A stretch of DNA of 64,000 bases from a virus. Its lineage: Duplodnaviria > Caudoviricetes. The position numbers and the translations under genes were made by a program. The stretch spans positions 32,001-96,000 of IMG/VR virus record IMGVR_UViG_3300031992_000018. One strand, 5' to 3'. Of the stretch, positions 10,401 to 60,400 are shown piece after piece (the first letter of the stretch is position 1; each line of letters starts with the position of its first letter). The notes beneath the pieces were generated by a model. It had not been told where the DNA came from and searched no databases. It saw only the letters and a list, made by a program, of their open reading frames with translations.

Positions 10401-11723
10401 ACTATTTATTATAATGTAATTAATATATATGGTGATAAATATGATTTAGCTTCATTTATTGGTATTGGTAGAAGTGATGGCGGAACAGTTTATTATGGTG
10501 GTTGGTGGCCAAATGTAGATGGTGAAGGAGGAACAAATGGTAAACTTATAGAAGATAATATTTATGCTGTATATAAATTAACTGGACAAGAAGCTAGTTT
10601 TGGTTTATTCTCACAGAAATATTCATTCTGGACAATAAATCTTAAAGGTAAATCATCTGGTTATTCACAAGATTTATGTCAAGCAAATGAAATTGAATTT
10701 GTTGGATTAAGTAAAACACCATATAGTAAATCAAGAAATGCTTCATATTATAATAAAGTAACTATTGGTAAAAATGTTTATATGGTTAATAGAACAACTA
10801 ATAATACTACTAGCTTAAAAACTATTTCAAAGAATTATTATGATAATAATAAAACATCATTAAAATATACAACAAATAATAAAACTATTAAAGTTTCTAA
10901 TAATATAACAGGTATAAAGATTAAAAATGCTGTTATACCAAATTGGGATGATGTATTCTATTTACAACCTAAGATTACATATACATCAACTGGTTCTTGG
11001 GAATCTAAAGATGGTGATAAATCATTTAATGATAATAAGAAATGTACATTTGGAAATGCTAAGATTGTATCTATAAATATATCAAGATGGGATGATTTCA
11101 CAATGAATATTTCATTTAATGTTGTTGCTGGAGATACAACTCATCTTCCAAATAATACACAGATTATAGAATATGTTGGATCATCATTTGGTAGAAGTAA
11201 TATAATATTCTTGCAAGGAAGTAAGAGTTATGAATATAGTCAATTCTATAATTCATTAAGTGTAAGTTGTACAAATTGGGTAAATAATACATGTACAGTA
11301 ACATTTAAGTTATCTAATCCATATAGTTTAAATAATACTCCAGGATTAGAGGTTAAAGAATATTTCTATAGTTTAACTTCAGATACATTAAAACCTGTTT
11401 ATGTTGACAGAGAAATACCATTTAGCGGAAAGAATAATAGAAATTATATTAAAGCTTCAGCTCCATTATTAGCAAATATAACAGGTATTAAATTCTGGGT
11501 TGGATTGAATACAACAAGTACATGTGTTGTTGAAAAACAATATATATCTTCATTATCATCAATTGGTACAGAAGTATTAATAAGTGGTAATTACAAGACA
11601 GGATGTGCTAAATCATTATCAATTGTAAATGCTAATACAACACAAAATACTAATATTTCTAATAAAAACTTTGGTAATAAAGAAAAGAATTTATCAAATA
11701 CATTATTACCTGCTGAAAAATAA
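7425..11723 (+). CDS. Long fibre/receptor-binding protein, paralog 2 (1432 aa)
   Basis: Same N-domain and shaft repeats, coiled coil, shared beta domain, KPVKPEIPEP linker, then a long unique C-terminal region. Confidence 0.65.
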   Translation: MKTQLGNTTKSFGKEYNISVSNLGGEGVLSTYSYLRENTIIIDSKVDSNFEDIGSYSIFMTDSNGNPVRLTYTIQPGNGLYPDPTDTDILRMVIDDSSIMANDGDEIYVNKHNIIDNDTLTVDPTDDGNSKRGRIHVVTQNLEKASDARYGVVTSDQNTTYIPYEYYKNINSDPDAEPEYQKIELNNPGDIPQDYDLLVESGKIMVNTQNLDTVDDSSNRDGIVKHNSETFRTIEAVDGKLTVLTYNLDKASYTDYGVIKTDGITIQADDSGVVSVLTDGLEHSNKSKFGISKGDEVTINSLDGVLSVNTRNLSYATYTAPGVVIIDKYSMSVNEGKIEVNRYNEIESILDRNNPEHDLFRSDIEDLKNRVSKLETAALQEVIEFLIPVGDPETSLPQPIFDRDTWTVNHYSDRKTISFSIKTNCKFNVNVEYKNGTNDYSQVELINVRYGDEDTIPANQLANTIFNATGNTVKTLYFTFVVRNYDKDDNLASINTQAIISAASINDSSIKQTQFHIFKCWNNIAFTEDKPVKPEIPEPIIIPESYLLTHVGTEKIYAYNYAYNFKEVVLSYNKTTSNNFFFTTTIDATYCYCTYTDGQYVWGYKTDVPTYQCPKIGGNSSYDINIKYQNIDEDGGVVGGQVDSLDWLNTYITASYNTTRAFNVLTVFSKKPLTEKSRAAYITCYLNTVDLNNSTESNIKLNTKFGEIKKFNNATLSHVNYTYTSEQDLSQKSTNIESFKNTVLNTLSQNITDDSLLSLKRTNINNAKNNVTNLNTSNTSYSSVFSKIIENDITEFNNVKAELDNYYTNNLNSKTPETYQKEKYIAYYTYVKKLDKYAYKLADEYNKFVDILSNEKNKFDNKFIINNNEVLIKNNPNNYNSYTYLTLFYSEKMDLVQPIINVTSSINAKDNGIKFSVIRNEKSLLKINNYPLLIQYNYINKSGNLVNSDGTSLNPSNRYEKYLLNIPKESTTYTNVLLNNVINGTNTETTTETIYYNVINIYGDKYDLASFIGIGRSDGGTVYYGGWWPNVDGEGGTNGKLIEDNIYAVYKLTGQEASFGLFSQKYSFWTINLKGKSSGYSQDLCQANEIEFVGLSKTPYSKSRNASYYNKVTIGKNVYMVNRTTNNTTSLKTISKNYYDNNKTSLKYTTNNKTIKVSNNITGIKIKNAVIPNWDDVFYLQPKITYTSTGSWESKDGDKSFNDNKKCTFGNAKIVSINISRWDDFTMNISFNVVAGDTTHLPNNTQIIEYVGSSFGRSNIIFLQGSKSYEYSQFYNSLSVSCTNWVNNTCTVTFKLSNPYSLNNTPGLEVKEYFYSLTSDTLKPVYVDREIPFSGKNNRNYIKASAPLLANITGIKFWVGLNTTSTCVVEKQYISSLSSIGTEVLISGNYKTGCAKSLSIVNANTTQNTNISNKNFGNKEKNLSNTLLPAEK

Positions 11724-29744: not shown

Positions 29745-29774
29745 ATTATTTTTATAAAAAGATTAATTGATTAA

Positions 29775-30056
29775 ATGAAAAAATTAGTTGATTATATAAA
29801 TGAATCAAAAGGAGATCCTATTGATGAACAATGGATAAATGATGAAAAACCAGTAATGACTAAAGATGGCCGTCAAGCTATTATTAAATCAATAGATATG
29901 GATGAGGTTCCTAATATAATTAAAGGAGCAGTTAAATGGAATGAAGATCTTCTTGATTATGAATGGTTAGATGATGGAACATGTAAGAAGGCTCTTGACC
30001 GTCTTGGAAATCCTAAGAAACCTGATGAAAGTGATAACCTTGTAAAAGCAATTTAA
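29775..30056 (+). CDS. Putative internal head protein with capsid-targeting-like leader MKKLVDYINE
   Basis: Leader motif, and late-promoter core TATTTTTA at 29747-29754. Confidence 0.6.
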   Translation: MKKLVDYINESKGDPIDEQWINDEKPVMTKDGRQAIIKSIDMDEVPNIIKGAVKWNEDLLDYEWLDDGTCKKALDRLGNPKKPDESDNLVKAI

Positions 30057-30059
30057 AAT

Positions 30060-30332
30060 ATGGATATAGATATTAATCAAATTGGTCGCCAAGGATATAA
30101 AATGCTTCAAACAATGCATGTAATTGGTGATAAAGAAAAGAAAGATTTAACTCTTAAAGAAAGAGAAGAAATAATTAAAAATCTTTATGAACATTTAAAT
30201 ATGTCCATAATAAAATGTGGTCAAGATAGAAATCATAAGTATGAATTTTTATCATATTTATATCTTAGTGTGATCCTTTATCTGGATAACTTGGATTTAA
30301 ATAAATTTATAAAACTTTCTACAAAAGACTGA
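30060..30332 (+). CDS. Hypothetical protein
   Basis: ORF. Confidence 0.6.
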   Translation: MDIDINQIGRQGYKMLQTMHVIGDKEKKDLTLKEREEIIKNLYEHLNMSIIKCGQDRNHKYEFLSYLYLSVILYLDNLDLNKFIKLSTKD

Positions 30333-30450
30333 ATTTAATTTTAATATTTTTCTATAATATAAATGTAATTTTAATGTTTATTTGAATTGATATTAACATA
30401 TAAATTAACAAATATCAATTCGTATGTTTAACTTTTAAAAATCAAATTAA

Positions 30451-31530
30451 ATGAAAAATCAAAAATTGATCACTGCTGCAGATGTATGTGATGTTCTTGA
30501 GTCACCTTTTGCAGATGATAAGGAGAGAATTAAATATATCTCTCAGCATTACGGACAGATGACCATTACTAAGGCCTTTTCCGTATATTATGGACTTGAA
30601 ATTGATGATGATAAGAAGTCCAATAAGAATGTCATTAATAATATTGAACTCGGAAAAATTTATACTGGTACTGTCAAGGAGTTCACAAAGAATATTATGA
30701 CATTTGATATTCCTGGTGTAAAGGAGGAGATAATCTGTAAAGAGCCATTTGGCACATGTATGGACAGTATCAGAAATTATCTTCTTACCCATGATAATAA
30801 GCTTATGTTTGAGGTTCGTGAGAAGGAACGTGATAAGTATTATGTAAGTGTTATCAATGCTTACTATAAGGCATGGGAAAATCTTATTAAAAAGGCTATT
30901 GACCATGAAGATGGTATCAATGTTCACATTGATGAGCTTGTAAAGGGTGGTTATGTTTGTCACACAGATATTACAACTCTTACTGAGTTAACAGGTAAAA
31001 AGTATATTTCAAGTGTATTTATTCCTGGTTCTCATATTGTATTGAATATTGAACGTGATTTTGAGAAGTGGATTGGTCAGGATGTAGTTATCGTTCCTCA
31101 AAAGTTTGTAGAATTTAAGAAAGACCTTAAGACAGGTTATACTGAGAATAGTCTTGTTGGTTCAAGAAAGAGAGTTCTCCAGATTCTTGGTACAAAGAAT
31201 ATGTTTGACCTCTGGAATGATCTTGAAACAAAGAAGAAGCTTGCTTCTCTTTCTAATAAGACTGATGTTAAGTCTGATGTTTATGAAGGTACTGTAACAG
31301 GTATTATTAATTCAAACAAGAAGACTGGTATTTTTGTTGAGCTCAATGGAAAGTATATTACAGGTCTTATGCCTATTGATACTTCAGAGCTTCTTGATTA
31401 TCGTCCAGGTGATGAAATCAAGGTTAGAATATCTGAATTTGAAATTCAGGAAGGAAAGGAACCTTTCGTCCTAAATAAGAAAAATCAGATTATTAAGTGT
31501 AATGTCAGACCTGTTTTCGAGGTTGCATAA
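30451..31530 (+). CDS. Ribosomal protein S1-like protein (three S1/OB domains)
   Basis: ELGKIYTGTVK; KGGY...VFIPGSHI...LVGSRKRVL; VYEGTVTGI...GIFVEL..ITGLMP...PGDEIKVRI. Confidence 0.85.
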   Translation: MKNQKLITAADVCDVLESPFADDKERIKYISQHYGQMTITKAFSVYYGLEIDDDKKSNKNVINNIELGKIYTGTVKEFTKNIMTFDIPGVKEEIICKEPFGTCMDSIRNYLLTHDNKLMFEVREKERDKYYVSVINAYYKAWENLIKKAIDHEDGINVHIDELVKGGYVCHTDITTLTELTGKKYISSVFIPGSHIVLNIERDFEKWIGQDVVIVPQKFVEFKKDLKTGYTENSLVGSRKRVLQILGTKNMFDLWNDLETKKKLASLSNKTDVKSDVYEGTVTGIINSNKKTGIFVELNGKYITGLMPIDTSELLDYRPGDEIKVRISEFEIQEGKEPFVLNKKNQIIKCNVRPVFEVA

Positions 31531-31531
31531 A

Positions 31532-31559
31532 AAAAGAGAGGTTTTAAAACCTCTCTTTT
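31532..31559. terminator. Bidirectional terminator
   Basis: Perfect palindrome AAAAGAGAGGTTTTAAAACCTCTCTTTT between convergent genes. Confidence 0.9.
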
Positions 31560-31995
31560 ATTTTATAACAGTAATTACACCTGAATAACTATTTGTTCGT
31601 TTATTATATAAAATAGTTCCTTCATAAGGTTTTTCTTCTCCTGTTGATGGATCTAAGTAAGTAAAATATTCTTGTTTACTTTCAATAGGTGGATTATATT
31701 CTAATTTAAATAAATCTCTTTCTGTGTATGTAAAATATACATTACCATCTTCATCTTTCTTTATTGATTCAAAATATCTTATTTCCTTATTTTCATTATT
31801 GATATATGAATAATAAGATAAGTAACCTTTTACTTCTTCAATTTCTGGATGGTATTCAAGTTCTTTATTTAAAGTATTCTTTTCAGAAATAGTAAGTATT
31901 CCATTATATGAATTATTATCAGATATAATTTTACCTACATATTTTTTCTTATTACCATCTTTGTCAATGTAATAAAATTTATCTTTATAAGCCAT
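31558..31995 (-). CDS. Small beta-repeat protein (3 repeats)
   Basis: Y/F.Y.D..G....Y.G.I......SY.G repeats, paralog of ORF 32888. Confidence 0.7.
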   Translation of the reverse strand: MAYKDKFYYIDKDGNKKKYVGKIISDNNSYNGILTISEKNTLNKELEYHPEIEEVKGYLSYYSYINNENKEIRYFESIKKDEDGNVYFTYTERDLFKLEYNPPIESKQEYFTYLDPSTGEEKPYEGTILYNKRTNSYSGVITVIK

Positions 31996-32009
31996 AGTTA
32001 TGGAATAAT

Positions 32010-32870
32010 TTATTTATTAAGAATTAATCTACCAGTAAATTTAACACCAGATTCAGCATAAGCTGTAAGTGTACCTTCTGAACCTTTCTTAAGTTCATCA
32101 GTTGTAGCATTTAACCAAACAATACCTTCTTTACCAGTATTTGTATCAACTGAGAAAATATCTGGAATTGATGAATACCAATAAAGCTGAGTATTAGTAA
32201 CATTTTCTGGAGTAAGTGAATATGAAAGTTCAAATTTATCTCCACAATTAAGACGAATTGGTTGTTCAAATTCAATACTTGTTACAGGATAACGATTCTT
32301 ATATTCTACAGTATGTCTATTATCAGCAATACTATCCCATTTATTAAAGAAATATGTTCCTTCTTCATTACAGAAAGTTACATCATAAATAAGTTCAAAT
32401 GCACCTGAATAAGCATTTTTTGTAAAGTATTCTGTATTACCATCAAGATTCATTTCAGAATATGGGATTTCTTCATACTTTTCACCATCTGGAACAAATA
32501 TTGTTGTTTGTGAAGGTAATTTACAATAAATTGATGGGGGATTTGATGCTTCAAAATCAAGTTCTTGTAATGATGTACAACCATCAAATGCTTCTTTACC
32601 AATATATTCAATTGTTTCACCAATAGGTACTCTTTCAAGTGATGTACAACCCTTGAAAGCTCCTCTCTTAATTTTCTTAATTTCTGGTGGGAATGCTATA
32701 TATGATAATTCTGTGCAATTTTGGAAAGCATAAGCACATACTTCATCAGTATTATCAAGACCATATCTTACAACATGTGTATCTGCTTGAGCAAATGTAT
32801 GAGTATAAGGAACTTGACTTTTATCAGTAAGTTCTACATTTTCACCATCAATGATAAGTTTATTAATCAT
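32010..32870 (-). CDS. BspA-type leucine-rich-repeat protein with C-terminal Ig-like (Big_2-like) domain
   Basis: AF..CT.L..I...I..I...AF repeats and LSYSLTPENVTN..L.W.SS. Confidence 0.85.
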   Translation of the reverse strand: MINKLIIDGENVELTDKSQVPYTHTFAQADTHVVRYGLDNTDEVCAYAFQNCTELSYIAFPPEIKKIKRGAFKGCTSLERVPIGETIEYIGKEAFDGCTSLQELDFEASNPPSIYCKLPSQTTIFVPDGEKYEEIPYSEMNLDGNTEYFTKNAYSGAFELIYDVTFCNEEGTYFFNKWDSIADNRHTVEYKNRYPVTSIEFEQPIRLNCGDKFELSYSLTPENVTNTQLYWYSSIPDIFSVDTNTGKEGIVWLNATTDELKKGSEGTLTAYAESGVKFTGRLILNK

Positions 32871-32887
32871 AATATATTATATTAATT

Positions 32888-33301
32888 TTATTTTTCTTTA
32901 AATATTTTAACTATTTCATCATGAAGAATATCTTCTGTTACTTCTCCATAATATGAATTAGATTCTAAATCAAATTTTGGTTTGCCAATAAAAACTCTTT
33001 CTCTACCATAATTATCTTTATATGAGAAATATTCATCGACATGTTCAACAGAATTTACTGTAGGATGATAATCTAAAATAACTTTATGTGTTGTAATTGT
33101 CTTTCCAATATATGATCCATCTAAATCTGTAACAACAATTCCTGAATATTTTAATTTTTCTCCATTTGCATTTGTATAAGTATAATATTCAGGTACATAT
33201 TCTTGTCCAGGATGATGTATTAAAGCTATTTTAATATTTCTTTTTATTCCTTTACTTGCATTAGTACCAGGTTTTTTATTTGAAAAAGAAAATGTTGCCA
33301 T
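32888..33301 (-). CDS. Small beta-repeat protein (2 repeats)
   Basis: Paralog of ORF 31558, late promoter at 33322-33335. Confidence 0.7.
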   Translation of the reverse strand: MATFSFSNKKPGTNASKGIKRNIKIALIHHPGQEYVPEYYTYTNANGEKLKYSGIVVTDLDGSYIGKTITTHKVILDYHPTVNSVEHVDEYFSYKDNYGRERVFIGKPKFDLESNSYYGEVTEDILHDEIVKIFKEK

Positions 33302-33396
33302 ATTTATTTATTTTACCAATTTATAATTAAAAATAAAATATAAAATGAATTATTAGAAAATGATTCTATATTAATTATGTAAAAACAAAGAATATT

Positions 33397-34137
33397 ATGA
33401 AGTATATTGGTAAATCTGATAAATTTTACACTCTCTGGGAAGTTAATACAGAAACCCGTACTACAATGCGTGGTGAGACTTATAGAGTTACTACTCATCA
33501 GTATATCAAGAATATTTCTTTTGATCTTGTAAAAGCTACCAATAAATATCCTAATGCAATTCTTGATACTTCTCTTCGCGGTCATTCTTCTTGGACTTCT
33601 GTAGATTATCCAAAGCCTCCAGTTGATGAATTCCATGGAGGTAAATATCGTGGAGATAAGATTGCTGAATGTACAGATTATCAATATCTCCATTGGGCTT
33701 ATGACCTTGGTTATATCATTCCTTGGGAAGCTAGAGAAATAGTTCTTGGAATTCTTGAATCACAAGGTTATAGGAAAATTAATGATACTCATATTGCTAC
33801 TCCTGAAGAAGTAGAAAGAATCGAGAAGAGTTATACTGAATGTGAAGAAGCTCAGAAAACTTTAGAAGAGTTTGGTTCTATTAAGATTGTCGCCAATAAG
33901 AATCTTGATGAATTTGGAAATTTGAGTATTGGAAATATCGAATTCAATTTTCCTAATTATAAAGAACTTGAATATGGTGGTTATTCTTATGGACTTCCTA
34001 TTGATTCTAAAGGAAAAGCTAAAAGAATTAAGAATAAGGAAATTGAAATTATTCCTGAATCTTTTAAAATGGTTATCAGTGAATATGGTTGGGGTGCAAC
34101 CCTTAATGTTGAAGTAAAAGATTTTAAAATTTTATAA
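33397..34137 (+). CDS. Hypothetical protein with GKYRG...YLHW module
   Basis: Module resembles the exonuclease C-terminus. Class E promoter at 33345-33373. Confidence 0.7.
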   Translation: MKYIGKSDKFYTLWEVNTETRTTMRGETYRVTTHQYIKNISFDLVKATNKYPNAILDTSLRGHSSWTSVDYPKPPVDEFHGGKYRGDKIAECTDYQYLHWAYDLGYIIPWEAREIVLGILESQGYRKINDTHIATPEEVERIEKSYTECEEAQKTLEEFGSIKIVANKNLDEFGNLSIGNIEFNFPNYKELEYGGYSYGLPIDSKGKAKRIKNKEIEIIPESFKMVISEYGWGATLNVEVKDFKIL

Positions 34138-34139
34138 TT

Positions 34140-34337
34140 ATGGCTTGTTTAGAAGATTATCCTATTATTGAAACTGCAATTAATTATGGTCTTAATGCTT
34201 GGGGAAAGCATGAAGCTATGGCTATTCAAATTGCAAGATTCTGGGTAGATGGTTGGCTTGAAGCTAACAAGGGTAAGGTATCTGAAGAAGATGCCAAGAT
34301 TATTCGTCGTGGAGTTGATAATTGGATTTGGCTATAA
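34140..34337 (+). CDS. Hypothetical protein
   Basis: Operon-packed ORF. Confidence 0.65.
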   Translation: MACLEDYPIIETAINYGLNAWGKHEAMAIQIARFWVDGWLEANKGKVSEEDAKIIRRGVDNWIWL

Positions 34338-34338
34338 T

Positions 34339-35064
34339 ATGGAAAAAACTCCTAAATTAATTAAAGATTGTAAAGTGGGAGATACACTTTACTATGTTAT
34401 TTTAAAAGATGGCTCTGTTGAAGATTTAATTATCCCAGTTTCTATTGAAGAAATTAAAATGGGTGATTCATTTGGTATAAAGCCGAATGTATATAAATGT
34501 AAATCTATATATGGTAGTGACACTTATGAATTTAATCATGAAAATAGTGAACAACATGACAGTCTTATTGTAGATAGTGATTATGCTTATGCAAAAGATG
34601 CTAATGGTTTTAAAAATAATTATGAAAGATTTTATACAACATATGATGGTGCTGTTGAATGGTTAATGGTAGAAATCAAATATGATATTATAAAGAAACT
34701 TAATAGGCTTGAAAAACTTGAAAGGAATAATGGAATAAAGACAAATATATTCCAAAAGAAAACTAAACAGTGTAAAATAGATTATCATCCTTATAAGAAA
34801 ATTGAAATTTATGACTGTAGTTCTTGGGAGAAACCTGAAGATATAGATAAAGCTCTTGAAAATAAGAAAATTAAAGTCTATAAAAAATTAATTGAGACTG
34901 ACTATTATGGTGATATCAAATATTCTGGTACTGAAATCTTTGTAAAAGAGTTTGATTATGTTGAAGATGCATTAGAATATATCTTTGAACATGATAAATC
35001 AAGATGGCATGGTGATCTTGATTCATGGTATGAAGGTGAAACTTATTTTATAAAAGAAGATTAA
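34339..35064 (+). CDS. Hypothetical protein
   Basis: Start reassigned to ATG 34339 to avoid overlap. Confidence 0.7.
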   Translation: MEKTPKLIKDCKVGDTLYYVILKDGSVEDLIIPVSIEEIKMGDSFGIKPNVYKCKSIYGSDTYEFNHENSEQHDSLIVDSDYAYAKDANGFKNNYERFYTTYDGAVEWLMVEIKYDIIKKLNRLEKLERNNGIKTNIFQKKTKQCKIDYHPYKKIEIYDCSSWEKPEDIDKALENKKIKVYKKLIETDYYGDIKYSGTEIFVKEFDYVEDALEYIFEHDKSRWHGDLDSWYEGETYFIKED

Positions 35065-35066
35065 AA

Positions 35067-35285
35067 ATGAAAACTTATAAATTTTATGTAGGAACATGTC
35101 CTAATAGTCCAAATTTTGAAAACTTACAAAAATGGTTTGAACATATGCAATCTATAGGATGGGAACTTATTTGTCCAGTTCATAAACAAACTAATACAAA
35201 TTATGCATCTTATGAACAAGGATATATATTTAGAAAAGAAGAAATACTATGTAAACCTAATAATATAAATGATAAAGAAGGATGA
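35067..35285 (+). CDS. DUF4177-like small protein
   Basis: MKTYKF...GWELI...YIFRKE. Confidence 0.6.
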   Translation: MKTYKFYVGTCPNSPNFENLQKWFEHMQSIGWELICPVHKQTNTNYASYEQGYIFRKEEILCKPNNINDKEG

Positions 35286-35479
35286 AACAATTTGAATATA
35301 ATATGATATCTGTACCAAATGGTACTGATGGATCAGAATTAATTAAATGTCTCAATAATGATGGTAAATTAGGTTGGGAAGTAATATCTATGATTCAATC
35401 ATCTGATAGAAGTCATTTTAATGTTTTGTTGAAACGAGAAATTTTAAATGAAAATTATATAGAAAATGAAAAGAATTGA
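35282..35479 (+). CDS. DUF4177-like small protein
   Basis: MKQFEY...LNNDGKLGWEVI...LLKRE. Confidence 0.75.
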   Translation: MKQFEYNMISVPNGTDGSELIKCLNNDGKLGWEVISMIQSSDRSHFNVLLKREILNENYIENEKN

Positions 35480-35639
35480 ATATAAAGTAGAATGGATATC
35501 AGAGAGTGGTTCATATGAATTGGAAAATAGATTACAAAAATATGGTGATGATGGTTGGGAATTAATAACCATTAGAGAACATTTTACATATATATTTAAA
35601 AGAGAAAAAATTATAAATAATAAAAAAGAGGGAATTTAA
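35466..35639 (+). CDS. DUF4177-like small protein (57 aa, not in ORF track)
   Basis: MKRIEYKV...LQKYGDDGWELI...YIFKRE. Confidence 0.75.
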   Translation: MKRIEYKVEWISESGSYELENRLQKYGDDGWELITIREHFTYIFKREKIINNKKEGI

Positions 35640-35652
35640 ATTCCCTCTTTTA
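35622..35652. terminator. Bidirectional terminator
   Basis: AAAAGAGGGAATTTAAATTCCCTCTTTT palindrome. Confidence 0.9.
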
Positions 35653-36369
35653 TTTTACTTTTTTACCAAAACTTATAAGATTATAATTTATACTTAAACC
35701 AACACCGACATAAACATCTGGTTTTTTATTAATAAATCCATAACCAACACCAATTTGTGGTCCTACACCAATACTCCATCTTGGAGTAGTTTTTGGTAAA
35801 ACAACACCTTGTACATCATTATATTTAAGATATGGATTATTTGATGTTACATATACTTTACTATCTTTAATAGCAACAGTAAGATCTGCATAAACTATAT
35901 CTTTATCAATAGTAAGACCAATATTAGGTTTATTATATTCTATAAATCCAGAAAGTATTCTCCATTTATTTGAAAAATCAAATGGATGTTTAATATAAGT
36001 AGTACTATCACTTACAACAAATGTTGTATCATGTACTGGATAAGGTACTTCAACATTTACATAAACAACTTCACTTGGTTTTGCTTTAAGTTCTTTAACT
36101 TGTTTATAAAGATCTTCATTTGTTTGTTTAAGAAGATTAATATCTCCTTCAAGAACTGTTTTTTCAGCAACTAAATCACCACTTTTAGTTTTCCATAATT
36201 GAACTTCTTCAGTTAAGGCTTTAACATTATTTTCATATATCTTTCTACTATCAATTTGATTAGTACATGATCTAAATAAGAACAATAAAGATATAACCAA
36301 TGCTAAACTTAATATAATTTGTGATTTATATTTATTCCAAAAATCTTTAATTAATTCAATAAAATTCAT
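35650..36369 (-). CDS. Membrane-anchored coiled-coil protein, spanin-like
   Basis: N-terminal TM helix, coiled coil, C-terminal Gly-rich amphipathic beta hairpin. Confidence 0.55.
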   Translation of the reverse strand: MNFIELIKDFWNKYKSQIILSLALVISLLFLFRSCTNQIDSRKIYENNVKALTEEVQLWKTKSGDLVAEKTVLEGDINLLKQTNEDLYKQVKELKAKPSEVVYVNVEVPYPVHDTTFVVSDSTTYIKHPFDFSNKWRILSGFIEYNKPNIGLTIDKDIVYADLTVAIKDSKVYVTSNNPYLKYNDVQGVVLPKTTPRWSIGVGPQIGVGYGFINKKPDVYVGVGLSINYNLISFGKKVK

Positions 36370-36388
36370 AAAATTAATAGAAAAAATA

Positions 36389-36414
36389 TATTTTTATATA
36401 GGTAATTAAAAATA
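36389..36414. promoter_or_regulatory. Overlapping divergent class L promoters
   Basis: TATTTTTATATAGG (+, 36389) and TATTTTTAATTACC (-, 36414-36401). Confidence 0.6.
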
Positions 36415-36422
36415 ATTTTTTT

Positions 36423-36881
36423 ATGTCAACTAATAATTATATAAAACATCAAGGACCTAGAAAAAATTCTAAATATCATCAAGGTGTAGTTGATCCTAAA
36501 AAGCTTAGAAAATATTTTGATTCATGTAAAAATGAACCAGTTATTTATAGAAGTGGATTAGAATATCAATTTATACAGTTTTGTGAAAATAGTCCTACAG
36601 TTGCTAAATGGGCAAGTGAAGTACTTAAGATACCTTATTATTCTCATCTTGATGGTAAAGAATGTAATTATTATCCTGATTATGTTATTGAAAATTACAA
36701 AGGAGTAAAATGCGTAGTAGAGCTTAAACCATATAATCAAACAATAAAACCAGATATGACAGATAGTAATTGGTTGAAAGAACAATGGATTAAGAATGTT
36801 GATAAATGGAATGCTGCTAAAAAATTCTGTGATGAGAATGGACTTAAATTTATGATTATAACTGAAAAATTCTTTGAATAA
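36423..36881 (+). CDS. Head completion nuclease, T4 gp4-like
   Basis: YRSGLE..F..FC...WASE...IPY...YYPD...ELKP..QT..P...KW.AA..FC...F.IITE. Confidence 0.9.
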   Translation: MSTNNYIKHQGPRKNSKYHQGVVDPKKLRKYFDSCKNEPVIYRSGLEYQFIQFCENSPTVAKWASEVLKIPYYSHLDGKECNYYPDYVIENYKGVKCVVELKPYNQTIKPDMTDSNWLKEQWIKNVDKWNAAKKFCDENGLKFMIITEKFFE

Positions 36882-36885
36882 AAAT

Positions 36886-37266
36886 ATGAAAACATTAGTA
36901 CAATATATTAAAGAAAGTAAAGACGGTAAAATATTATATAATGATATATTTAATAAATTATATAAATACCTTTTGAAATCTAATAAAGAAAATAAGAAAG
37001 GATATTCTGATAAAGAAATAGATGATTATTTTCATCAAGATTTAAACTCAGATTCATTTAAAGAAAATGAAAATAAAGTTGTTAAAGAATTATTTGAAGA
37101 ATATCCAGACATGGATTGGAGTACCAAATCCCAATTAATGGAATATATTAAAAGAAATAATAATGCTCTTTGTGCAAAAGAATTAATCGGTACAGCACTT
37201 TATCAGGCATTTGTAAAATTTGTTTATATTCATATTCAACATATAAAATATGAAGGACATGTTTAA
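36886..37266 (+). CDS. Putative internal head protein with leader MKTLVQYIKE
   Basis: ATG 36886 follows the gp4 stop and carries the leader motif. Confidence 0.6.
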   Translation: MKTLVQYIKESKDGKILYNDIFNKLYKYLLKSNKENKKGYSDKEIDDYFHQDLNSDSFKENENKVVKELFEEYPDMDWSTKSQLMEYIKRNNNALCAKELIGTALYQAFVKFVYIHIQHIKYEGHV

Positions 37267-37287
37267 ATAATTCTATATTATATATAT

Positions 37288-37986
37288 ATGGCACCATTTA
37301 AAAGACCTATAAAGAAAAAAGAAGAACAAGAAGAATTATCAAGAACCACGATAGTTAATTCAAGAAGAAACTTACGTGATTTAGATACTCATATATATAC
37401 ACCAGATGAAATTGAAAATTTCAGATTAGATGAGGCAATAAATAATAATCCATTATCACATAGACCAACTAATATTAGAAGTAAATTAGCTTATGCTGAA
37501 GTAATGAAACAATTAAAACCAACTTCTAAATATTTACTTCCAGGACAACTTGTTATTTTTGAATATCTTGAACCAAAATTTAAAGAAGATCTAGAATATT
37601 ATGACAGAACACCTTTTACTCTTTTCTTTGGTATAACAAGAACAGATGATGGTAATATTCGTGAAATTGGACTTAATCTTCATTATTATCCACCTCATAC
37701 AAGAGCAAGAATATTAAGAAAAACTTATCAAGTATTTAAACCATATTTTGATAAATATTTCAATGATCCATCACATAAACCAAATGCTATTATTTCATAT
37801 TCATCATTAAAACATTTAATGAAAGTAAATGATAAGATTGGTTTTGGTGTTAAGATGTATATTCCTGTTCTTAGAGGAAGAAGTTATGTTGTTCCTCCAA
37901 GACTTTGGCCAACTGCATTTTATACAGAAGGACACTTTAGTAAAGCTACATTACAACAGATATTTAGTTTCTGGAGACAGTTTTAA
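37288..37986 (+). CDS. DNA end protector, T4 gp2-like
   Basis: PGQLVIFEY.PK.K..LEYYD..P...GLNLHY.PP..R. Confidence 0.85.
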   Translation: MAPFKRPIKKKEEQEELSRTTIVNSRRNLRDLDTHIYTPDEIENFRLDEAINNNPLSHRPTNIRSKLAYAEVMKQLKPTSKYLLPGQLVIFEYLEPKFKEDLEYYDRTPFTLFFGITRTDDGNIREIGLNLHYYPPHTRARILRKTYQVFKPYFDKYFNDPSHKPNAIISYSSLKHLMKVNDKIGFGVKMYIPVLRGRSYVVPPRLWPTAFYTEGHFSKATLQQIFSFWRQF

Positions 37987-38042
37987 TTGAATTGATTAAA
38001 ATATAGATTCTATATTAATTAATAAATATAGAATCTTTTTTT

Positions 38043-38912
38043 ATGAGAGATTGTGTAATAGTAATTCCAGTATATAAACCTACTCTTGATTGTGTAGAAG
38101 AAATTTCTTTAAAACAACTACATAAAATTATTTATAATCCACCATTTCATATGGATGATTATAGAGATTGGGAAGAAAGAGATGTATTTCTTGTTTATCC
38201 TCAAGGAATGGATATAAGTGAATATAAAAAAATATATCCTTCTCTTAAAGAAAAAACATTTGATCCTGAATATTTTAAATCAACAGCAACATATTCACAA
38301 TTATGTATATCATATGATTTTTATAAATCATTTGATTGGTATGATTATATGTTGATATATCAACTTGACTGTTATCTTTTTAAAGATGAAATTAGTAAAT
38401 GGTGTAAAAAAGGATATGATTATGTTGGTGGTCCTATTCTTTCTACTGATTGTGGATGGAATACAATAAAAGAATCACAAAAAGGTAAGAAGTGGACTCC
38501 TTATGTTGGTAATGGTGGATTTAGCCTTAGAAAAATATCTACATTTAAAGAACTTACAGATCCTCTTGGTGAATTTAGAATAAGATATAATTTAACAGAT
38601 GATAAATTAAAGAATGTATTATTTGAAGATAAATACTTCTGTAATGATATTTATAACTTATATGAATTAGATGTACCTTCTTGGAAAGAAGCTCTTGAAT
38701 TTGGTTTAGATATGTCTGTAGATATTGTATATAATTATCTTAAATGGACTGGTGAACCTATGGGTATTCATTCTGTTGATAAGAATATCAGATGGTGGAA
38801 AAAAATAATTCCTGAGTTTATGGATCAAAAAGTCATAGATTATTGTGAAGAAAAACATAAAGAATTCTTTAAGTTATATTATGATGAAAATGATTCAACA
38901 TTAAGACAATAA
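38043..38912 (+). CDS. Glycosyltransferase-like protein (DUF5672-type)
   Basis: IVIPVYK, YMLIYQLD, YDYVGGP, VGNGGFSLRK, EDKYF. Confidence 0.8.
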   Translation: MRDCVIVIPVYKPTLDCVEEISLKQLHKIIYNPPFHMDDYRDWEERDVFLVYPQGMDISEYKKIYPSLKEKTFDPEYFKSTATYSQLCISYDFYKSFDWYDYMLIYQLDCYLFKDEISKWCKKGYDYVGGPILSTDCGWNTIKESQKGKKWTPYVGNGGFSLRKISTFKELTDPLGEFRIRYNLTDDKLKNVLFEDKYFCNDIYNLYELDVPSWKEALEFGLDMSVDIVYNYLKWTGEPMGIHSVDKNIRWWKKIIPEFMDQKVIDYCEEKHKEFFKLYYDENDSTLRQ

Positions 38913-38971
38913 TATAGATTAAATTATTATAAGTTTTATTATTATATATAATTTATAATATGTAATTAATT

Positions 38972-40003
38972 ATGAAGAAATTTTCAGATATATTTAACGA
39001 ATCTTGTGTAACAAGTGATGTAAATCAAGGTAATTCATTATCACTTGGTGTAAGTAATCATTATACACCTGTTCAGAATATTGTAACTAATGTTAGAAAT
39101 TTATTTTCTATCATAGTTCCTGTTGTTGCATCTGTTGCAGAAGATGGTGTATCAGTTAAATTAAATTCTAGTAAATTTGTAAATAAAGAAGAAATTAATA
39201 AATTACTTTATCAACCAGTATATCAATCACAATCTTTATATTCATTCATTGCTTCACAAGGACTTGATCTTGTTAAGATGGTAAATCTTGGCATGTATTT
39301 TGTTGTATATTTCTGCCCAAGAGATATTAAACAAGCAGCTCCTGGTCTTGAAGCAAATCCAGCTTCAGCTCCAGTAAAAGAACAATTCCAAGAAGAAGTT
39401 GAAATGTTTAACTTTATCAAAGAAAGTGAAGATGATGAAGAATTAAAAGATTTGACTAAAGAAAAACTCAAAGAAATTCTTGATATGAAGGATAAAGTAA
39501 AAGCTGCTAAGCAGATGGAATTACTTATTTCTAGTGAAGTAGAACTTCCAAGAGAATATTATTTTGCTGGTGTTAAAGATAAACAAGGAAATGAATCAAT
39601 TGCACTTAGATGGAAATATACAGTAAAGAGACCAAAGGGAATGAGTGCTGAAATTACAAGAAGCCTTATTAATATTTATGGTGTTGATAAAGATGGTGTA
39701 TGGGTAGGAGATTTTGATGAAGATAGTATGTTCCAACTTCCTGATGAAGTAAAGAAACTTATTGAAACAGTTCTTGATTATATTGGTGCCGAAAAAACAG
39801 ATGATCCATGTGTATATGATTTATCCGGAGAAAATAAAAAAGATAAAGAAGATAAAGAGGATAAAGATGATGAAGAAACAAAGGATAATTCTAACAAAAA
39901 TGATGGAAATAAAGAAAAAGAAAGAGAAGAAAGCAAAAAAGAAAATGATGAAGATGTAGAAGATGATAAATCTCGTGATGAAGCTGATGATTTATTAAAA
40001 TAA
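38972..40003 (+). CDS. Putative prohead core/internal protein with leader MKKFSDIFNE and acidic tail
   Basis: Leader motif, D/E/K-rich C-terminus, late-like motif at 38937-38950. Confidence 0.55.
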   Translation: MKKFSDIFNESCVTSDVNQGNSLSLGVSNHYTPVQNIVTNVRNLFSIIVPVVASVAEDGVSVKLNSSKFVNKEEINKLLYQPVYQSQSLYSFIASQGLDLVKMVNLGMYFVVYFCPRDIKQAAPGLEANPASAPVKEQFQEEVEMFNFIKESEDDEELKDLTKEKLKEILDMKDKVKAAKQMELLISSEVELPREYYFAGVKDKQGNESIALRWKYTVKRPKGMSAEITRSLINIYGVDKDGVWVGDFDEDSMFQLPDEVKKLIETVLDYIGAEKTDDPCVYDLSGENKKDKEDKEDKDDEETKDNSNKNDGNKEKEREESKKENDEDVEDDKSRDEADDLLK

Positions 40004-40021
40004 ATATATGACTATTAAAAT

Positions 40022-40261
40022 ATGAAAAATATAGTAGAATATATTAGTGAAAAGTTTAATGATATAAAATCTAAAGAAGTAAATGAACAAGATGACACTG
40101 TTTGGGTACTTAGAGATAAAGATTTAGATGGTGCAATTTTTGATGTATGTGATACAGAAGAAGATGCTAACCGTTTAAAAGAAATGAAACTTAAAGAAAA
40201 TCCTGATGCAAATTTTGAAGTAGTAACAGGAAAAAGAAGTGAATTTGTAAAAGAAAATTAA
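40022..40261 (+). CDS. Putative internal head protein with leader MKNIVEYISE
   Basis: Leader motif. Confidence 0.6.
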   Translation: MKNIVEYISEKFNDIKSKEVNEQDDTVWVLRDKDLDGAIFDVCDTEEDANRLKEMKLKENPDANFEVVTGKRSEFVKEN

Positions 40262-40274
40262 TAAATAATAAATT

Positions 40275-40565
40275 ATGAAAAATTTAACAGAATATTTAAC
40301 AGAATCATCATCTATTAATGAAGCATGGAATTCAAAATGGGATGATGTATTAGATTATCTTTTAGATGATATGGATCCAGAAGAATTAGAATCAATGAAA
40401 GAAGATGATCCTGGTGAACTTTTTGATTGGATGCAAGGACAACTTGAAGATAGTGATGATTCAACAGCAAGAAGTTTTGCTAAAGCATTATCTAAGAATG
40501 ATCCAGCTGTTATTAAACATATTCAAGATAAAGTTGATGAAATTTTAGCTGATTATGATGAATAA
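40275..40565 (+). CDS. Highly acidic putative internal head protein with leader MKNLTEYLTE
   Basis: Leader motif, about 28 D/E versus 8 K/R in 96 aa. Confidence 0.6.
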   Translation: MKNLTEYLTESSSINEAWNSKWDDVLDYLLDDMDPEELESMKEDDPGELFDWMQGQLEDSDDSTARSFAKALSKNDPAVIKHIQDKVDEILADYDE

Positions 40566-40590: not shown

Positions 40591-40630
40591 GAGGGATTCT
40601 TTTGAATTCCTCTTTTTTTATACTATATTA
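40591..40630 (+). terminator. Terminator fused to class E promoter
   Basis: GAGGGATTC-TTTT-GAATTCCTC-T7, with TTGAAT(40602)-N16-TATATT(40624). Confidence 0.75.
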
Positions 40631-54498: not shown

Positions 54499-57400
54499 AT
54501 GGCTAAACATAGAGATTTTGGTACAATAAGAGTAAGAATACAATTACCTTCAACTGATGAACAGAAGGCAATAGTAGGAAGTATGCCTGATAATTTACAA
54601 AAAATAGGTGCAGATATTGATAGTGCTATGTTAGCTATTATTACCGGAGATACATCTAAAAAACCTAATATCGGTGATATTGCTAAAGGATTTACTATCG
54701 GTAAAGATGGTACATTATTTAGTAATATAAAAAATATTAATGAAGAAATTACACAAATAAAAACTGAATTAACTAATAGTAATAAAACATTATCAGATAT
54801 ATATGGTTTACTTAATTCAATTACTACTAAAGAAAATCCAGAATCAAAAAAATCATCTGTTCTTATTGTTGATACAACAAAGGCAAATAATTTAGAACAA
54901 ATTCTTGGAGAGGTAAAAAATCTTGCTAATAATTCAAATGAAGTTGATTTAGATGGTTTTATTAACATTGAAAAATTCTTTATAATGTTAAATGAACTAA
55001 CTAATGAAAATGGTATAATAACTCAAGCAGTAAATAATACAAATAATATACCTAATTTATCTAAAAAGGCAAATAAAAATATTCATACATTAACATCTTT
55101 ATTTACTGCTATTAATAATTTAATTGTAATAGATTCTAATAAAATAAAAAGTAGTAGTGATGAACTTAAAGCTAGTATTGAATATTTAAATAAAATATTA
55201 GAAGATATATCAAAGCTTGACATTGATGATAATATTAAAAATGTCAAGAAAACATTTGATTCTATAAAGAGTTTATATGATGATAATGTTAAAGTAACTG
55301 CTGAAGCAGTAAAAAATCATACAGCAGACCTAAATACTATAAAATTAGGTCTTGATCAATCATATGAAACAGTTATAACATCTCATGATAGAATGAGTGA
55401 TTTAGATATTGATGATATAGAATTAACTGCTGGTGATGTCGCAGGTGCTATTGCTTTATTAGGTGTAGTTATGCTTATTGGTGGAGCAATAATAAAGAAT
55501 AATCCAGACTTAATTCTTGAATCAGTAAAATTTGGTGCTGTATTAACTACTTTCTTATTAGAATTAAGTATACCTATTGCTGTTATTGGTGTAATAAATA
55601 ATAGACTTGACGCATCTTTTGATTCTTTAGCTGAATTAACTGTTTTTATAACAATTGCATCATTTGTAATGTTTATTGGCGCATTAGTTGTTCAAAATAA
55701 GAGATTAGTTATTAATTCATTATTATTTGGTACGGTTTTCTCAATATTTTTATTTGTAACTCTTGGAGCTATTAATATTGCTACAAAAAATATTACTCCT
55801 GAACTATTCAAAGATATTCATAAATTATCTTGGTTAATCATTACATGTACATTTGTAATGTTGATTGCTACTAAATTTGTTGAATCAAAAGAAATATGGG
55901 CTAATGCTTTACTATTTGGAATAATATTAGGAGGTTTTATCATTGCTGTATTATTACCATTTGCTTTATATGGTAGATTATTTAAAAAGACAATAGAGAT
56001 AGCATCAGGTGCTGTACAATTAATTTTAGTATGTACACTAATAATGGTTATTGCAGCATATTTTGTTAAAACAAAAGAAATATGGGAAAATTCATTAAGA
56101 TTTAGTGGTTTATTATTTGTATTTATATTTGCTACTACTGCACCACTATTATTCTTTGCTCTTCTTAAAGAAAAAGCATATGAAGCTATAGATTCTTATA
56201 GAAGATTTATAGTTACATCATTAATTATAATGACATTAGGTATCATCTTTATGAATATTAAAGGTGGTAAATATGCTATTGATGCTTTACAATTTGGTGC
56301 TTTATTAGGAGCATTTATATTTGCAACATTATTACCTGTTCTTTTATTTATTCCTTTACAGAAGAAAGCAACATCAACAATATTAGTTATAACTTTATTT
56401 GTATTAAGTTGTGCTGCTATATTATTTATGGCTGCTACTATTATTGAAAGTGGTACATGGAAAGCTGCATTATTATTTAGTGTAGCAATGGGATTATTTA
56501 TTACATCAATATTATTACCATTTAAGAAAGGTGTTAATGAAAGTATTACTAGAGCAACATTAGCTATTTTATCATTAAGTGTTTTAGTATTTGTTTCAGG
56601 ATATACTATAAAAATGGTAGCAGAAACTGTTAAAGATAATGGTTGGGGTAAAACTTTAATAGGTGCTGGTATTTTTGTTGCAACATTACTTATTTTAGTT
56701 GGAGGAATTGTATTTATATCTTCACTTATTGAAAATAATATAAATCCAAATAAAGTAAAAGCAATTTCATTTACTTTATTATCTATATCAGTTCTTATAC
56801 TTATAACTTCATATTCTTTATCATTATTGAAGAAATCTGGAATTGAATTAGCAGATATTGGAAAATTTGCTATTTTAAACGCTATTGTTATTGCAATGGT
56901 TGGTTTAATAGTTTGGATTTCAAGTAAAGCAGATTTTAATAACGTTAAAAATACTATAATGATAATGGGAGCAATTAGTCTTACATTATTAGTTATTGTT
57001 GGTACATTATGGTTATTAAAGAAAGCTGAAATTACAAAAGAACATTTAATACAAATTGGACTTATAGCTGCTGGTATTACAGTAATGCTTGCTATTATTA
57101 TGGTTATATCAATGATACCTGCTAAAAGAGTTTTAGAAGCAAGTAAAATAATGTTTGGAATAACATTTGTATTAGCTTTAGCAGTTGGTGCAATATGGTT
57201 AATGAAGAAAGCTAAAATTGATGAAACAGATTTAAAAAGAATTGGACTTATAGCTGGCGGTATTACTGTAATGACAGGTATTATAATGGCAATTAGTTTA
57301 ATACCAGCAAAAAATACAGAAGCAGCTATTGGTATAATGCTTTCTATAGGTATTACATTAGCTTTAGTGGTTGGAGCAATATGGTTAATGAAAACTGCTC

Positions 57401-60400
57401 AAATTAAAGAAGAAGATCTTAAATTAATAGGATGTATAGCTGGTGGTATTACTATAATGACAAGTATTATTATGGGATTATCAGCAATAAAATCAGTTGA
57501 TGCTAAAAAAGCTATATTAATTTTAGCTAGTATTACTATATGTTTAGTAGGATTAGTTTTAACTTTAGCATATTTAGCTAATTCTGGTATTGATTGGAAA
57601 CATATTTGGATGTTATATGCTATTGAAGGAGCTGTTGTAGTTTTAACTGCTATTACAATAGGTATTGGAATATTACTTGAAAAAGTAAAAGATAAAGGAA
57701 AATTTTATGAAAGTTTATTTATAGTTTCTTTAATGACAGCTTGTGTTATTGGATTAGCTCTTGGTATTTCAGAAATAGCAAAAGCTGGTGTTGAATGGAA
57801 ACATGTTTTAATGTTAGGTGCTCTTGAATTAGCTGTTGTAGCTTTAGTTGGTTTAGTTTTTGCTATTGGTGCTATAACTTCAATTCCAGGAGTAAAAACA
57901 TTATTAGCAATTGGTGCAGTTATTATTGCAGCAGCTGTTGGTGTAGTTTTATTAATAGGTATTGCTATAAGAAAAATAGCAGATGCAGCAAAAGAAGCAG
58001 ATGAAGTAAAACATCCAGAATCAATAGGTCTTGTTTTATCAGCATTTTTTAATTCATTTAAAGATTTAAGTTTAGGTAGTACATTAAAATTAGCTTTATT
58101 TGGTAAAAAAATAGCTAAAACAGTTAATAGATTAGTTGAACCAATTTCAAAGATTGTTGAAATTATAAAAAATATATCATCATTAAATGTTCCTACTGGT
58201 TTTGATAAAAATGGTAATCCAACAGGATATACACGTTTAACTCCAGAAGAATTTAAAAAAACTGCAAGTAATATAACAGATATACTTATGGTTATTCCAA
58301 ATGGTGTTGCACCAGCTGCTAAAAGTATAAAGAAATTTGTAAAGAGTAATAAAAAAACAGATAATTTATTAGAAGTAATTAGTAATATGGGCGAAATTAT
58401 TTCTAATATAGCTAAAGGTGTTCAATCATATGCTAATTTAGCAATACCTTCCGGATGGGATGAAAATTGTAAACCAACTGGTTATAGATTAATGAATGAA
58501 CAAGATTTTATAAATGCTGGAAATAGTATAAAACAAATACTTATAATAATACCAGAAGCTATAAAAAATACTTATGGTGATTTAAAGAAATTAATAAAGA
58601 ATAATGAAATTGACAGTGTTATAAAAACTTGTGTAAGTATTGGTGATATTATTGGTAATATAGCTAAAGGTGTTCAATCATATGCTAAATTATTAATTCC
58701 AAAAGATTATGATGAAAATGGTAAGCCTAAAAGATATGAATTAATGACAAAAAAAGATTTTAAGGATGCTGGTGAGGCAATTTCAGAAATTATGCTTACA
58801 ATGACAAAAGGTGTTATTAATGCATATAAAGAATATGAAACTATAATGACACCAAGCAAATTCAAGAAAATTATTAAATCATTTTCTCCTATTGGTGAAT
58901 TAATATCTAATATGAGTAAAGGTATTAAAGATATAATTGAATTAGAAATACCTATATATGATGAAAATGGTAATGTTGTTGGTAAGCAAAAATTAAATGA
59001 AAATGACTTTACTGATTTAAAAACTAATCTTAATATATTAATGACAGGAACATCACAATCAATTGTTGATATTGCTGACAATATGAAGAATAGTGATTTA
59101 GATCCTAGTTCTAAAAAGTTCAAAGCTATTATTGAATCATTTGTACCAATTGGAGAATTTATTTCTAAATTAGCAACTGGTATAAAAGATTATGCGTCAG
59201 CAACTTATACAGATGAAAATGGTAAGAAGATTCATGTTACTCCAGAATATATACAAGAAGCTGGAACTAATATATCTACATTATTAACAACTGTAACAAA
59301 TTCATTAATAGATTATTATAATGATCCTAAATATACAAAGTTATTTGATAAAGATATTATTAAAAATATAGGAACACAATATAAAGAAATTACAGAAGTT
59401 ATAAGTTCAATAATTGATTCTATTAAGAAAATAGGAGAAATTAAAAATGATATTATAATAACTAGTCTTAATAATTTAAATACAATATTTAATGGAACAA
59501 AGAAAGATAAATCAGATAGTTTAATAAATATTATATGCTCAGCATTTAGTGATAATATAAGTTATGATTCAAATAAATTAAAAACTATACAAACTATATT
59601 TACAGATTTATTTGATACTATTAATATATTAAATAAAAATTTAACTGAGAATGAAATTAAAAATATTCCAGAACAAAAAATTATAGCTATTATTGATAGT
59701 ATTACTAATATAATTAATAAATTTAAACCTGGAGATAGTTTTTGGGATGATAATAAGAATGTATTAAATATTGCAAATAAGTTTAAAACATTTGATTTAA
59801 TAAATGGTTATATATCATCATCTATAAAGAAAATTAGTAAATTAATAGATAATATAGATAAATTAAATATTAATAATTTATATTATGAAGAAGTAAATGA
59901 TGAAAATAAAGAAACTAAAAATAAAATTAATAAAATTACTAAAGTATTAAATTCTATTAGTAATATTACTAATATATTAAATTCAAACACAAATGTAAAA
60001 ATAGATAGAGAAAAAATAAATAAATTAAAAAAGGAACTTGGTTTAATAGATAATTTAATAGATGTCTTAAAGAATTCTTTTAAAAAACTTAATAAATTTA
60101 ATAAGGCATATGAAACTGATAATAATTTTGATAATATTTCCATAGCTATTAAAAAGTTTAATATTGCTTTTGCTAATATTAAGAAAGAATTAGAAGGAGA
60201 TCCTAAAAATAATATTCCAGGATTATCTAATGAATCAATTAAAAATTTAGCTAAGTTAGAATATAAAGTTGAAACATTTAGTAATATTGTTAGAGACCTT
60301 ATAAAAGCATCTTCTGATTCAATAAAGAATCCTAAGTTATTTGAACAAATTGGACAAGGTATTTCAACAATAAATAGTAAATTAAATGAAGTAAATAGTA

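Follow-up and report, generated by a model that had tools for sequence, protein, structure and literature searches.

Introduction

The capsid-targeting sequence (CTS) of the internal proteins of bacteriophage T4 was reportedly described by Mullaney and Black in 1996. It is the closest described counterpart of the element considered here, a ten-residue leader at the N-termini of unrelated proteins encoded in a 64,000-nucleotide stretch of viral DNA (hereafter the window), which comprises bases 32001-96000 of a 168,026-bp IMG/VR viral contig (G000; Caudoviricetes) of 25% GC. In T4, the CTSs of IPI, IPII and IPIII and the propeptide of gp24 are, like this leader, ten residues long, and are cleaved by gp21 (PMC9026906, PMC3012670, PMC5694885). 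The four proteins gp24, IPIII, IPII and IPI are gp21-processed head proteins with short propeptides (PMC5694885). Residues 4 and 7 of the IPIII CTS are mainly needed for targeting and residues 8 and 10 for processing, and an Asp at position 10 stops cleavage and leaves targeting in place (PMC9026906).

A second described system is that of the ejection and inner-body proteins of phiKZ-like phages (phiKZ, 201phi2-1 and SPN3US), which, as is predicted here, are giant phages with many proteins inside the head. Their propeptides are thought to target the prohead, and a gp175-type S80 protease cuts at S/A/G-x-E (PMC5694885, PMC7411985). A gp21-related protease that cuts after Glu is common to these phages and, by prediction, to the lineage studied here. 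However, phiKZ-like propeptides mostly exceed 100 residues and have no common short tag, and phages of this type lack the T4-type portal and the gp2-gp4 set, whereas the common element in the present lineage has ten residues and ends in I/L-x-E rather than S/A/G-x-E.

The hypervariable internal-protein loci of T-even phages likewise consist of diverse, fast-turnover small genes that share only the CTS and that vary in presence or absence between close relatives (PMC3012670, PMC9026906). The present system differs from them in its larger scale and in the spread of its genes over many genome sites. In phage P1, packaging follows a hierarchy of Dar and Hdf proteins and does not depend on one common ten-residue tag. 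The Dar antirestriction proteins of P1 (DarB and others, packaged in the head) are a precedent for very large injected counter-defence proteins (PMC12810830, PMC9024508).

A preliminary description of the window had proposed that five late-expressed, unrelated proteins carry a portable CTS-like tag that loads diverse effectors into the phage head. All computational tests reported below favor the tag; no evidence supports an effector role of the five proteins. T4 already supplies a system of this kind; what is new is how large it is here, how far the lineage lies from T4 and which types of cargo are tagged. A literature search, which included the Jug phage preprint and a jumbo-phage survey, did not find the expanded leader system described.

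Results

Occurrence of the leader

The leader is a recurrent element at the starts of open reading frames (ORFs), with the ten-residue pattern M-K-x-[LI]-x-[EQD]-[YF]-[IL]-x-E. A crude gene call on the 168-kb contig yielded 218 ORFs, and an iterated position-specific scoring matrix (PSSM) found the leader on 32 of their N-termini (approximately 15% of genes). Residue-shuffled N-termini gave a mean of 0.33 and a maximum of 4 matches, and the same score was reached at 3 of 47,827 internal positions. The consensus given in the preliminary description, applied as a regular expression, matched 15 of the 218 N-termini, compared with means of 0.013 for residue-shuffled and 0.24 for column-permuted controls. 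The comparison with shuffled N-termini, which that description had named as a possible refutation, therefore shows the motif to be far commoner than expected (15 vs 0.013 with the regular expression, 32 vs 0.33 with the PSSM). All five of its N-termini were found, at 29775, 36886, 38972, 40022 and 40275; they are real, but five is too low a number, as the scan of the proteome gives at least 32 on the contig. The other 27 leader genes are clustered outside the window, and the figure of 32 is a lower bound, coming from a contig whose CheckV completeness is 59%. At this completeness, the full genome is probably about 280 kb, i.e., that of a giant phage.

Relatives were collected by portal-based searches, and two of them were analyzed in full: G001 (236 kb, 26% GC, 83% complete) with 27 leader genes, and G002 (240 kb, 37% GC, 100% complete according to CheckV), which has 22 leader genes and a portal 57% identical to that of the contig. 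A strict DNA pattern of the leader had 14 matches in the contig, 7 in G001 and 9 in G002, compared with one each in T4 and Chryseobacterium phage MA9V-2 and none in the cultured relatives Tenacibaculum phage PTm1 and Sphingomonas phage PAU or in Prevotella phage Lak-A1 (542 kb) and LR756500 (462 kb). A reversed-pattern control had no match in any genome scanned. These counts, together with the control, indicate an expansion that is confined to a single clade and that base composition does not explain. AT-richness was ruled out as the source of the motif by the absence of matches in Lak-A1 and by the retention of the leader in relatives of 37-48% GC, and a signal peptide or lipoprotein reading was ruled out because the leader, a short acidic sequence, contains no hydrophobic core.

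The phage belongs to the sheep gut: 90-96% of sampled words of the stretch were present in sheep-gut metagenomes, and 30-44% in sheep-gut metatranscriptomes (RNA runs; index result). A megablast search of the region against cultured phages gave no match.

Conservation of the leader across the lineage

Residue frequencies were calculated for 81 leaders from the three genomes (the contig, G001 and G002). The conserved positions were as follows:

Position 2: K, 91%
Position 4: L/I/F, 100%
Position 7: Y/F, 85%
Position 8: I/L/V/F, 100%
Position 10: E, 80%

Positions 3, 5 and 9 are free. Leader codons differ between the genomes of 25% and 37% GC and the residues are retained; the leader also occurs on contigs of up to 48% GC. 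This comparison of codons and residues indicates that selection acts on the leader as protein, not as DNA, across a lineage.

Comparison with T4

A PSSM built only from the leaders of this contig was used to rank all 263 crude N-termini of T4 (AF158101). The top six were, in order, gp24 (MAKINELLRE/S; here and below a slash marks the end of the leader or propeptide), IPIII (MKTYQEFIAE/A), cd.1, gp61.1 (MKTFKEFIKE), IPII and IPI. The six include four established gp21-processed head proteins (hypergeometric P 7.7e-8). The leader and the T4 CTS thus match, and the near-invariant leader positions 4, 7, 8 and 10 are the same four that have been mapped in T4 targeting and processing. As in the T4 CTS, positions 4 and 7 of the leader are hydrophobic or aromatic, position 8 is I/L and position 10 is Glu, and one tag is carried by unrelated mature parts.

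The two other high-ranking T4 proteins are not among the known head proteins of the cited T4 literature. One is gp61.1, a hypothetical protein of 54 residues (L120:18966-19130, minus strand) whose start, ranked 4 of 263, is a near-perfect CTS; the other is cd.1, which begins MMNLTDIIDN and ranked 3 of 263.

The likeness to T4 extends from the motif itself (M-K-x-Phi-x-E-aromatic-I/L-x-E, then a small residue) to the unrelated bodies of its bearers, to co-expression with head genes (presumed here from a promoter motif, see below), and to the gene set, with portal, terminase, gp2 and gp4 in this phage and a gp23-type capsid protein and S77-type protease in relatives. It differs from T4 in the number of bearers, at least 32 in the 59% of a genome covered here compared with about four to six in T4; in belonging to a distant, sheep-gut lineage whose predicted cargo includes large enzymes; and in its protease, which has 492 residues, scores with both S77 and S80, and carries a repeat-rich C-terminal extension.

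Promoter motifs and predicted timing

Two promoter-like motifs, both enriched upstream of genes, partition the genome, motif A heading units of replication and nucleotide metabolism and motif B structural units. Motif A, TTCTATATTA, lies 20-33 nucleotides upstream of the starts of units that contain DNA polymerase, helicase and dCMP hydroxymethylase. Motif B, TTATTTTTAT[AT]TA, is located mostly 22-26 nucleotides before the genes for portal and terminase and before very large ORFs whose size suggests structural proteins. Neither motif equals the T4 late box TATAAATA.

With each gene placed in the class of the closest motif upstream of it on its own strand, motif-B units held 27 of the 29 class-assigned leader genes, compared with 51 of the 151 other genes (Fisher P 1.4e-9). 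The leader genes are tied to this late-type promoter, and it appears that they are expressed late, with the head genes; this timing is deduced from the association of motif B with structural genes, not from expression.

Three very large ORFs of the window, all on the plus strand, encode 1906 (704-6424), 1432 (7425-11723) and 2096 residues (54499-60789). Since the 1432- and 2096-residue ORFs directly follow motif-B sites and the 1906-residue ORF is part of a motif-B unit, all three are probably structural; Pfam and PHROG searches with the 1906- and 1432-residue products found no match.

An AAA ATPase of 502 residues (L004:3571-5079; genome 113571-115079, minus strand) is encoded behind a motif-B site and heads a late unit that runs into the largest array of leader genes (genome 105-113 kb). 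In a jumbo-phage survey, BCS1-like AAA+ proteins of phages were proposed to move folded proteins into heads (PMC7824862).

Head genes, protease and capsid protein

Head genes of T4 type co-occur with the leader. The portal of the contig matches Portal_T4 (PF07230, E 1.4e-73) and its terminase is of T4 type (Terminase_6N). Searches by tblastn with T4 gp43, gp17, gp20, gp4, gp2 and gp42 found matches on the contig at 23-45% identity, the portal being approximately 23% and TerL approximately 27% identical to T4. Of the T4-type head module, the portal is on the contig and the Gp23-family capsid protein is found only in the relative G002 (E 5.5e-25). The preliminary description had suggested locating a gp21-like protease and matching sites in the capsid protein. 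Such a protease was absent from the contig and from G001; the complete relative G002, with its 22 leader genes, has one. It has 492 residues, with an N-terminal domain that matches both Peptidase_S77 (T4 gp21; E 2e-7) and S80 (phiKZ gp175; E 5e-7), and a C-terminal part with repeats of W-[IV]-x-E-E-[FY]. Searches of PDB sequences by phmmer with the G002 capsid protein and protease gave no match.

Sites matching the predicted specificity were found in the capsid protein: in an alignment of T4 gp23, its PTm1 counterpart and that of this lineage, a common N-terminal motif KW..[IL][ITL]E was seen, with an invariant Glu in a Phi-x-E context. This alignment is consistent with, and does not prove, a conserved cleavage specificity.

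Relatives of the G002 protease occur on at least 15 contigs, and leader genes are often located directly upstream of them (several contigs, 30-48% GC). Within the clade, leader genes are also often directly downstream of the portal, where their presence varies between close relatives. The gene that follows the portal-adjacent leader gene was considered as the protease on the basis of T4 gene order and was ruled out, since it matches a baseplate protein.

The G002 protease (G002 164331-165809; L098:4331-5809, minus strand) itself begins with a leader-like MKQSYIYE/T. In its C-terminal half, each W-[IV]-x-E-E-[FY]-x-P repeat contains a Phi-x-E site, as if it were a fusion of protease and scaffold.

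Leader-bearing proteins

With the first 12 residues removed, blastp (E<1e-3) paired only one pair among the 32 proteins and none of the five in the window; by this measure the bodies of the leader proteins are of independent origin, in agreement with the preliminary description. Most of the proteins are small and acidic. Their bodies have either no Pfam domain or ResIII, AAA_33, Zeta_toxin, RimK or DUF285. The ResIII helicase domain is part of a leader protein of 1331 residues encoded outside the window. Two P-loop kinases carry the leader, one polynucleotide-kinase-like (AAA_33) and one zeta-toxin-like (L001:14921-15412 and L006:15717-16622), and are candidates for host-delivered enzymes. A further leader protein, g121535 (553 residues, MKTLTELLE/S), is conserved near portals in distant relatives; it was considered as the gp24 vertex protein and ruled out, being a RimK-like ATP-grasp protein.

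One sub-group of leader proteins has a longer common start, ...YI-x-E-KLHLNK[DN]IK, and includes L001:7427-7954, L003:11159-12046 and five more genes of the contig. Where tested, its members carry DUF285 (Mycoplasma DUF285) domains. A matching sub-group in G001 has EGLRINKN.

The five leader genes in the window

The five genes and their immediate surroundings are given below in window coordinates.

29747..29755, plus strand: motif-B (late-type) promoter-like site TATTTTTAT, 20 nucleotides upstream of the ATG of leader gene 1
29775..30056, plus strand: leader protein 1, 93 residues, MKKLVDYINE/S, isoelectric point (pI) 4.5 (acidic)
36389..36397, plus strand: motif-B site at the head of a unit comprising the gp4 homologue and leader gene 2
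36423..36881, plus strand: homologue of T4 gp4, head completion/head closure (tblastn E 5e-17; phrog_218 'head closure' E 4.7e-35)
36886..37266, plus strand: leader protein 2, 126 residues, MKTLVQYIKE/S, between the gp4 and gp2 homologues
37273-37279: motif-A site
37288..37986, plus strand: homologue of T4 gp2, DNA end protector, without leader (tblastn E 4e-9; phrog_429 'DNA end protector' E 7.5e-19)
38010-38016: motif-A site
38936..38947, plus strand: motif-B variant TTATTATTATAT at the head of a unit made up of three leader genes
38972..40003, plus strand: leader protein 3, 343 residues, MKKFSDIFNE/S
40022..40261, plus strand: leader protein 4, 79 residues, MKNIVEYISE/K
40275..40565, plus strand: leader protein 5, 96 residues, MKNLTEYLTE/S, pI 4.1, net charge -19
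40591..40619, plus strand: intrinsic-terminator-like hairpin GAGGGATTC-TTTT-GAATTCCTC plus seven T, closing the leader-gene unit (read from the sequence)
40623-40629: motif-A site

A motif-B site or a variant of it heads every unit that contains one of the five genes, which bears out the assignment of each to a late-type promoter or late operon. Leader gene 1 has its own site, and the genes at 38972, 40022 and 40275 form a single unit that extends from the motif-B variant to the intrinsic terminator, with a motif-A site immediately after it. The units of the five genes lie among motif-A units, so the preliminary remark on late islands among early genes also holds. The start of leader gene 2 at 36886 is the first ATG, 4 nucleotides past the stop of the upstream gene; the ORF as listed began from a TTG at 36874.

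Pfam and PHROG searches with the five proteins found no family. Proteins 1, 4 and 5 are small and acidic and have no relatives in G002; of these three, only protein 1 has a homologue in G001 (79% identical). Protein 2 has only 3 relatives among 5.8 billion proteins, and its gene is a rare accessory gene. Homologues of protein 3 number 561; some come from contigs of about 390-410 kb, and their N-termini vary around MK[KR]FS.... An identical copy of protein 3 is encoded on a contig of 194,944 bp. The leader of protein 3 has the lowest score of the 32 (16.3), position 7 being I and position 8 F. An AlphaFold (AF2) model of this acidic protein had an overall predicted local distance difference test score of 67.5, with two folded domains at 80-88; its N-terminus is disordered and its C-terminal tail highly charged. 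At E<=0.001, a Foldseek search with the model found no match in PDB or BFVD. Protein 3 resembles a conserved core component rather than a variable effector, and the core concerned may be that of the prohead.

The claim that the five are anti-defence or takeover factors is without evidence, given the lack of a Pfam or PHROG family for any of them and of a fold match for the 343-residue protein. Nor do all five look like variable effectors, since this 343-residue member, with its 561 homologues, resembles a conserved core protein.

The span of the five genes also contains a minus-strand gene (32010-32870) for a leaderless BspA-type leucine-rich-repeat protein. It is flanked by small leaderless ORFs (31558-31995 and 32888-33301) with common repeated 'Y..Y.G..' motifs, and all three are downstream of a minus-strand motif-B site.

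Discussion

On balance, we lean toward the view that the ten-residue leader is a capsid-targeting propeptide of T4 type that has undergone a large expansion in a clade of giant phages of the ruminant gut. As it matches the T4 head-loading tag, the proteins that carry it probably form a very large packaged, and possibly injected, set. According to this model, tagged proteins would be made late, alongside head proteins, and would attach to the prohead core during its assembly through hydrophobic residues 4 and 7. A prohead serine protease of the gp21/gp175 type would then cut after Glu10 in an I/L-x-E context. The mature proteins would remain in the head with the DNA, and at least some may enter the host at infection.

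Several observations weigh against this view. Packaging and cleavage are predicted from sequence, and since PTm1, PAU and Lak-A1 have no strict-pattern match, no virion proteome of theirs can vouch for them. A share of approximately 15% tagged genes is far above the handful in T4, and may be more protein species than one head can accommodate. Of the 32 leaders, 8 have no Glu10; among the 120 homologues of leader protein 3 that were listed, 38 begin MKRFSDFNKAMT, without the Glu. Internal [LI]-x-E sites are not depleted in leader bodies (observed/expected 1.06, 0.96 and 1.30, vs 1.16-1.19 for other proteins), this being a weak test. Finally, searches of the contig with PF03420 and PF07068, and of the contig and G001 by tblastn with the G002 capsid protein and protease, found neither a prohead protease nor a major capsid protein; these genes probably lie in the missing part of the genome.

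A broader proposal, which we put forward tentatively, is that the clade uses the CTS as a general address label, carried by some 30-50 of the proteins that each genome encodes (about 15% of the genes), most of which would be packaged and injected. The bearers would then include the 1331-residue ResIII-helicase protein, the kinases, the ATP-grasp enzyme and the DUF285 proteins, together with dozens of small orphan proteins.

It is rather unlikely that the leader instead addresses some other late partner, such as a chaperone or an AAA+ unfoldase or translocase, or that it is an oligomerization helix or a degradation signal, with no involvement of the capsid. A short tag that probably forms an amphipathic helix could have many binding partners; the AAA ATPase at genome 113571-115079 heads the late unit leading into the largest leader-gene array; and tagged genes make up a larger share than would be usual for head cargo. 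Under this explanation, however, there would be no reason for a contig-trained matrix to pick the gp21-processed head proteins of T4, for the conserved positions to overlap with the T4 targeting and cleavage residues, or for the leader to co-occur with the S77/S80 protease family.

T4 also offers a precedent for head-targeted proteins that are not delivered, since gp67, gp68 and gp22 are used in assembly and then degraded. If most of the leader-bearing proteins were such scaffold or core components, the idea of a cargo arsenal would be wrong, and the mechanism of targeting and cleavage would still be right. The 343-residue member, which is conserved (561 homologues), acidic and partly disordered, would suit this role, as would the mostly small, acidic nature of the bearers and the frequent position of leader genes right after the portal or right before the protease, which is that of T4 gp67/gp68. 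We nevertheless regard it as quite unlikely for the majority of bearers: a ResIII helicase, P-loop kinases and an ATP-grasp enzyme are implausible as scaffold, and many bearers are rare or variable, unlike an essential core, the 126-residue protein having 3 relatives and the portal-adjacent gene coming and going.

Conservation at the level of nucleic acid, as a translation-initiation or 5'-coding cassette or a recombination junction encoding a functionless peptide, would be in keeping with the A-rich starts of the leader genes and their lack of an obvious Shine-Dalgarno sequence, and is very improbable given that similar residues are specified by different codons (L/I/F at position 4, Y/F at 7, I/L at 8) with positions 3, 5 and 9 free, that the residues are kept with other codons in relatives of 37-48% GC, and that 51 genes of the same promoter class have no leader.

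If the leader does work as a capsid-targeting propeptide in the manner of T4, the proteins that an uncultured gut giant phage brings into its host could be listed from sequence. Proteins of the CTS class include the first-acting anti-defence and takeover factors, which are otherwise found only by virion proteomics, and the orphan small acidic leader proteins are candidates for new inhibitors of host defence. Once phages of this lineage are cultured, the tag could be tried as a packaging label for engineering them. The CTS-protease logic of T4 would, if this reading is true, be conserved over a very large evolutionary distance (portals of approximately 23% identity), and the set of cargo proteins that it serves would be able to expand by an order of magnitude.

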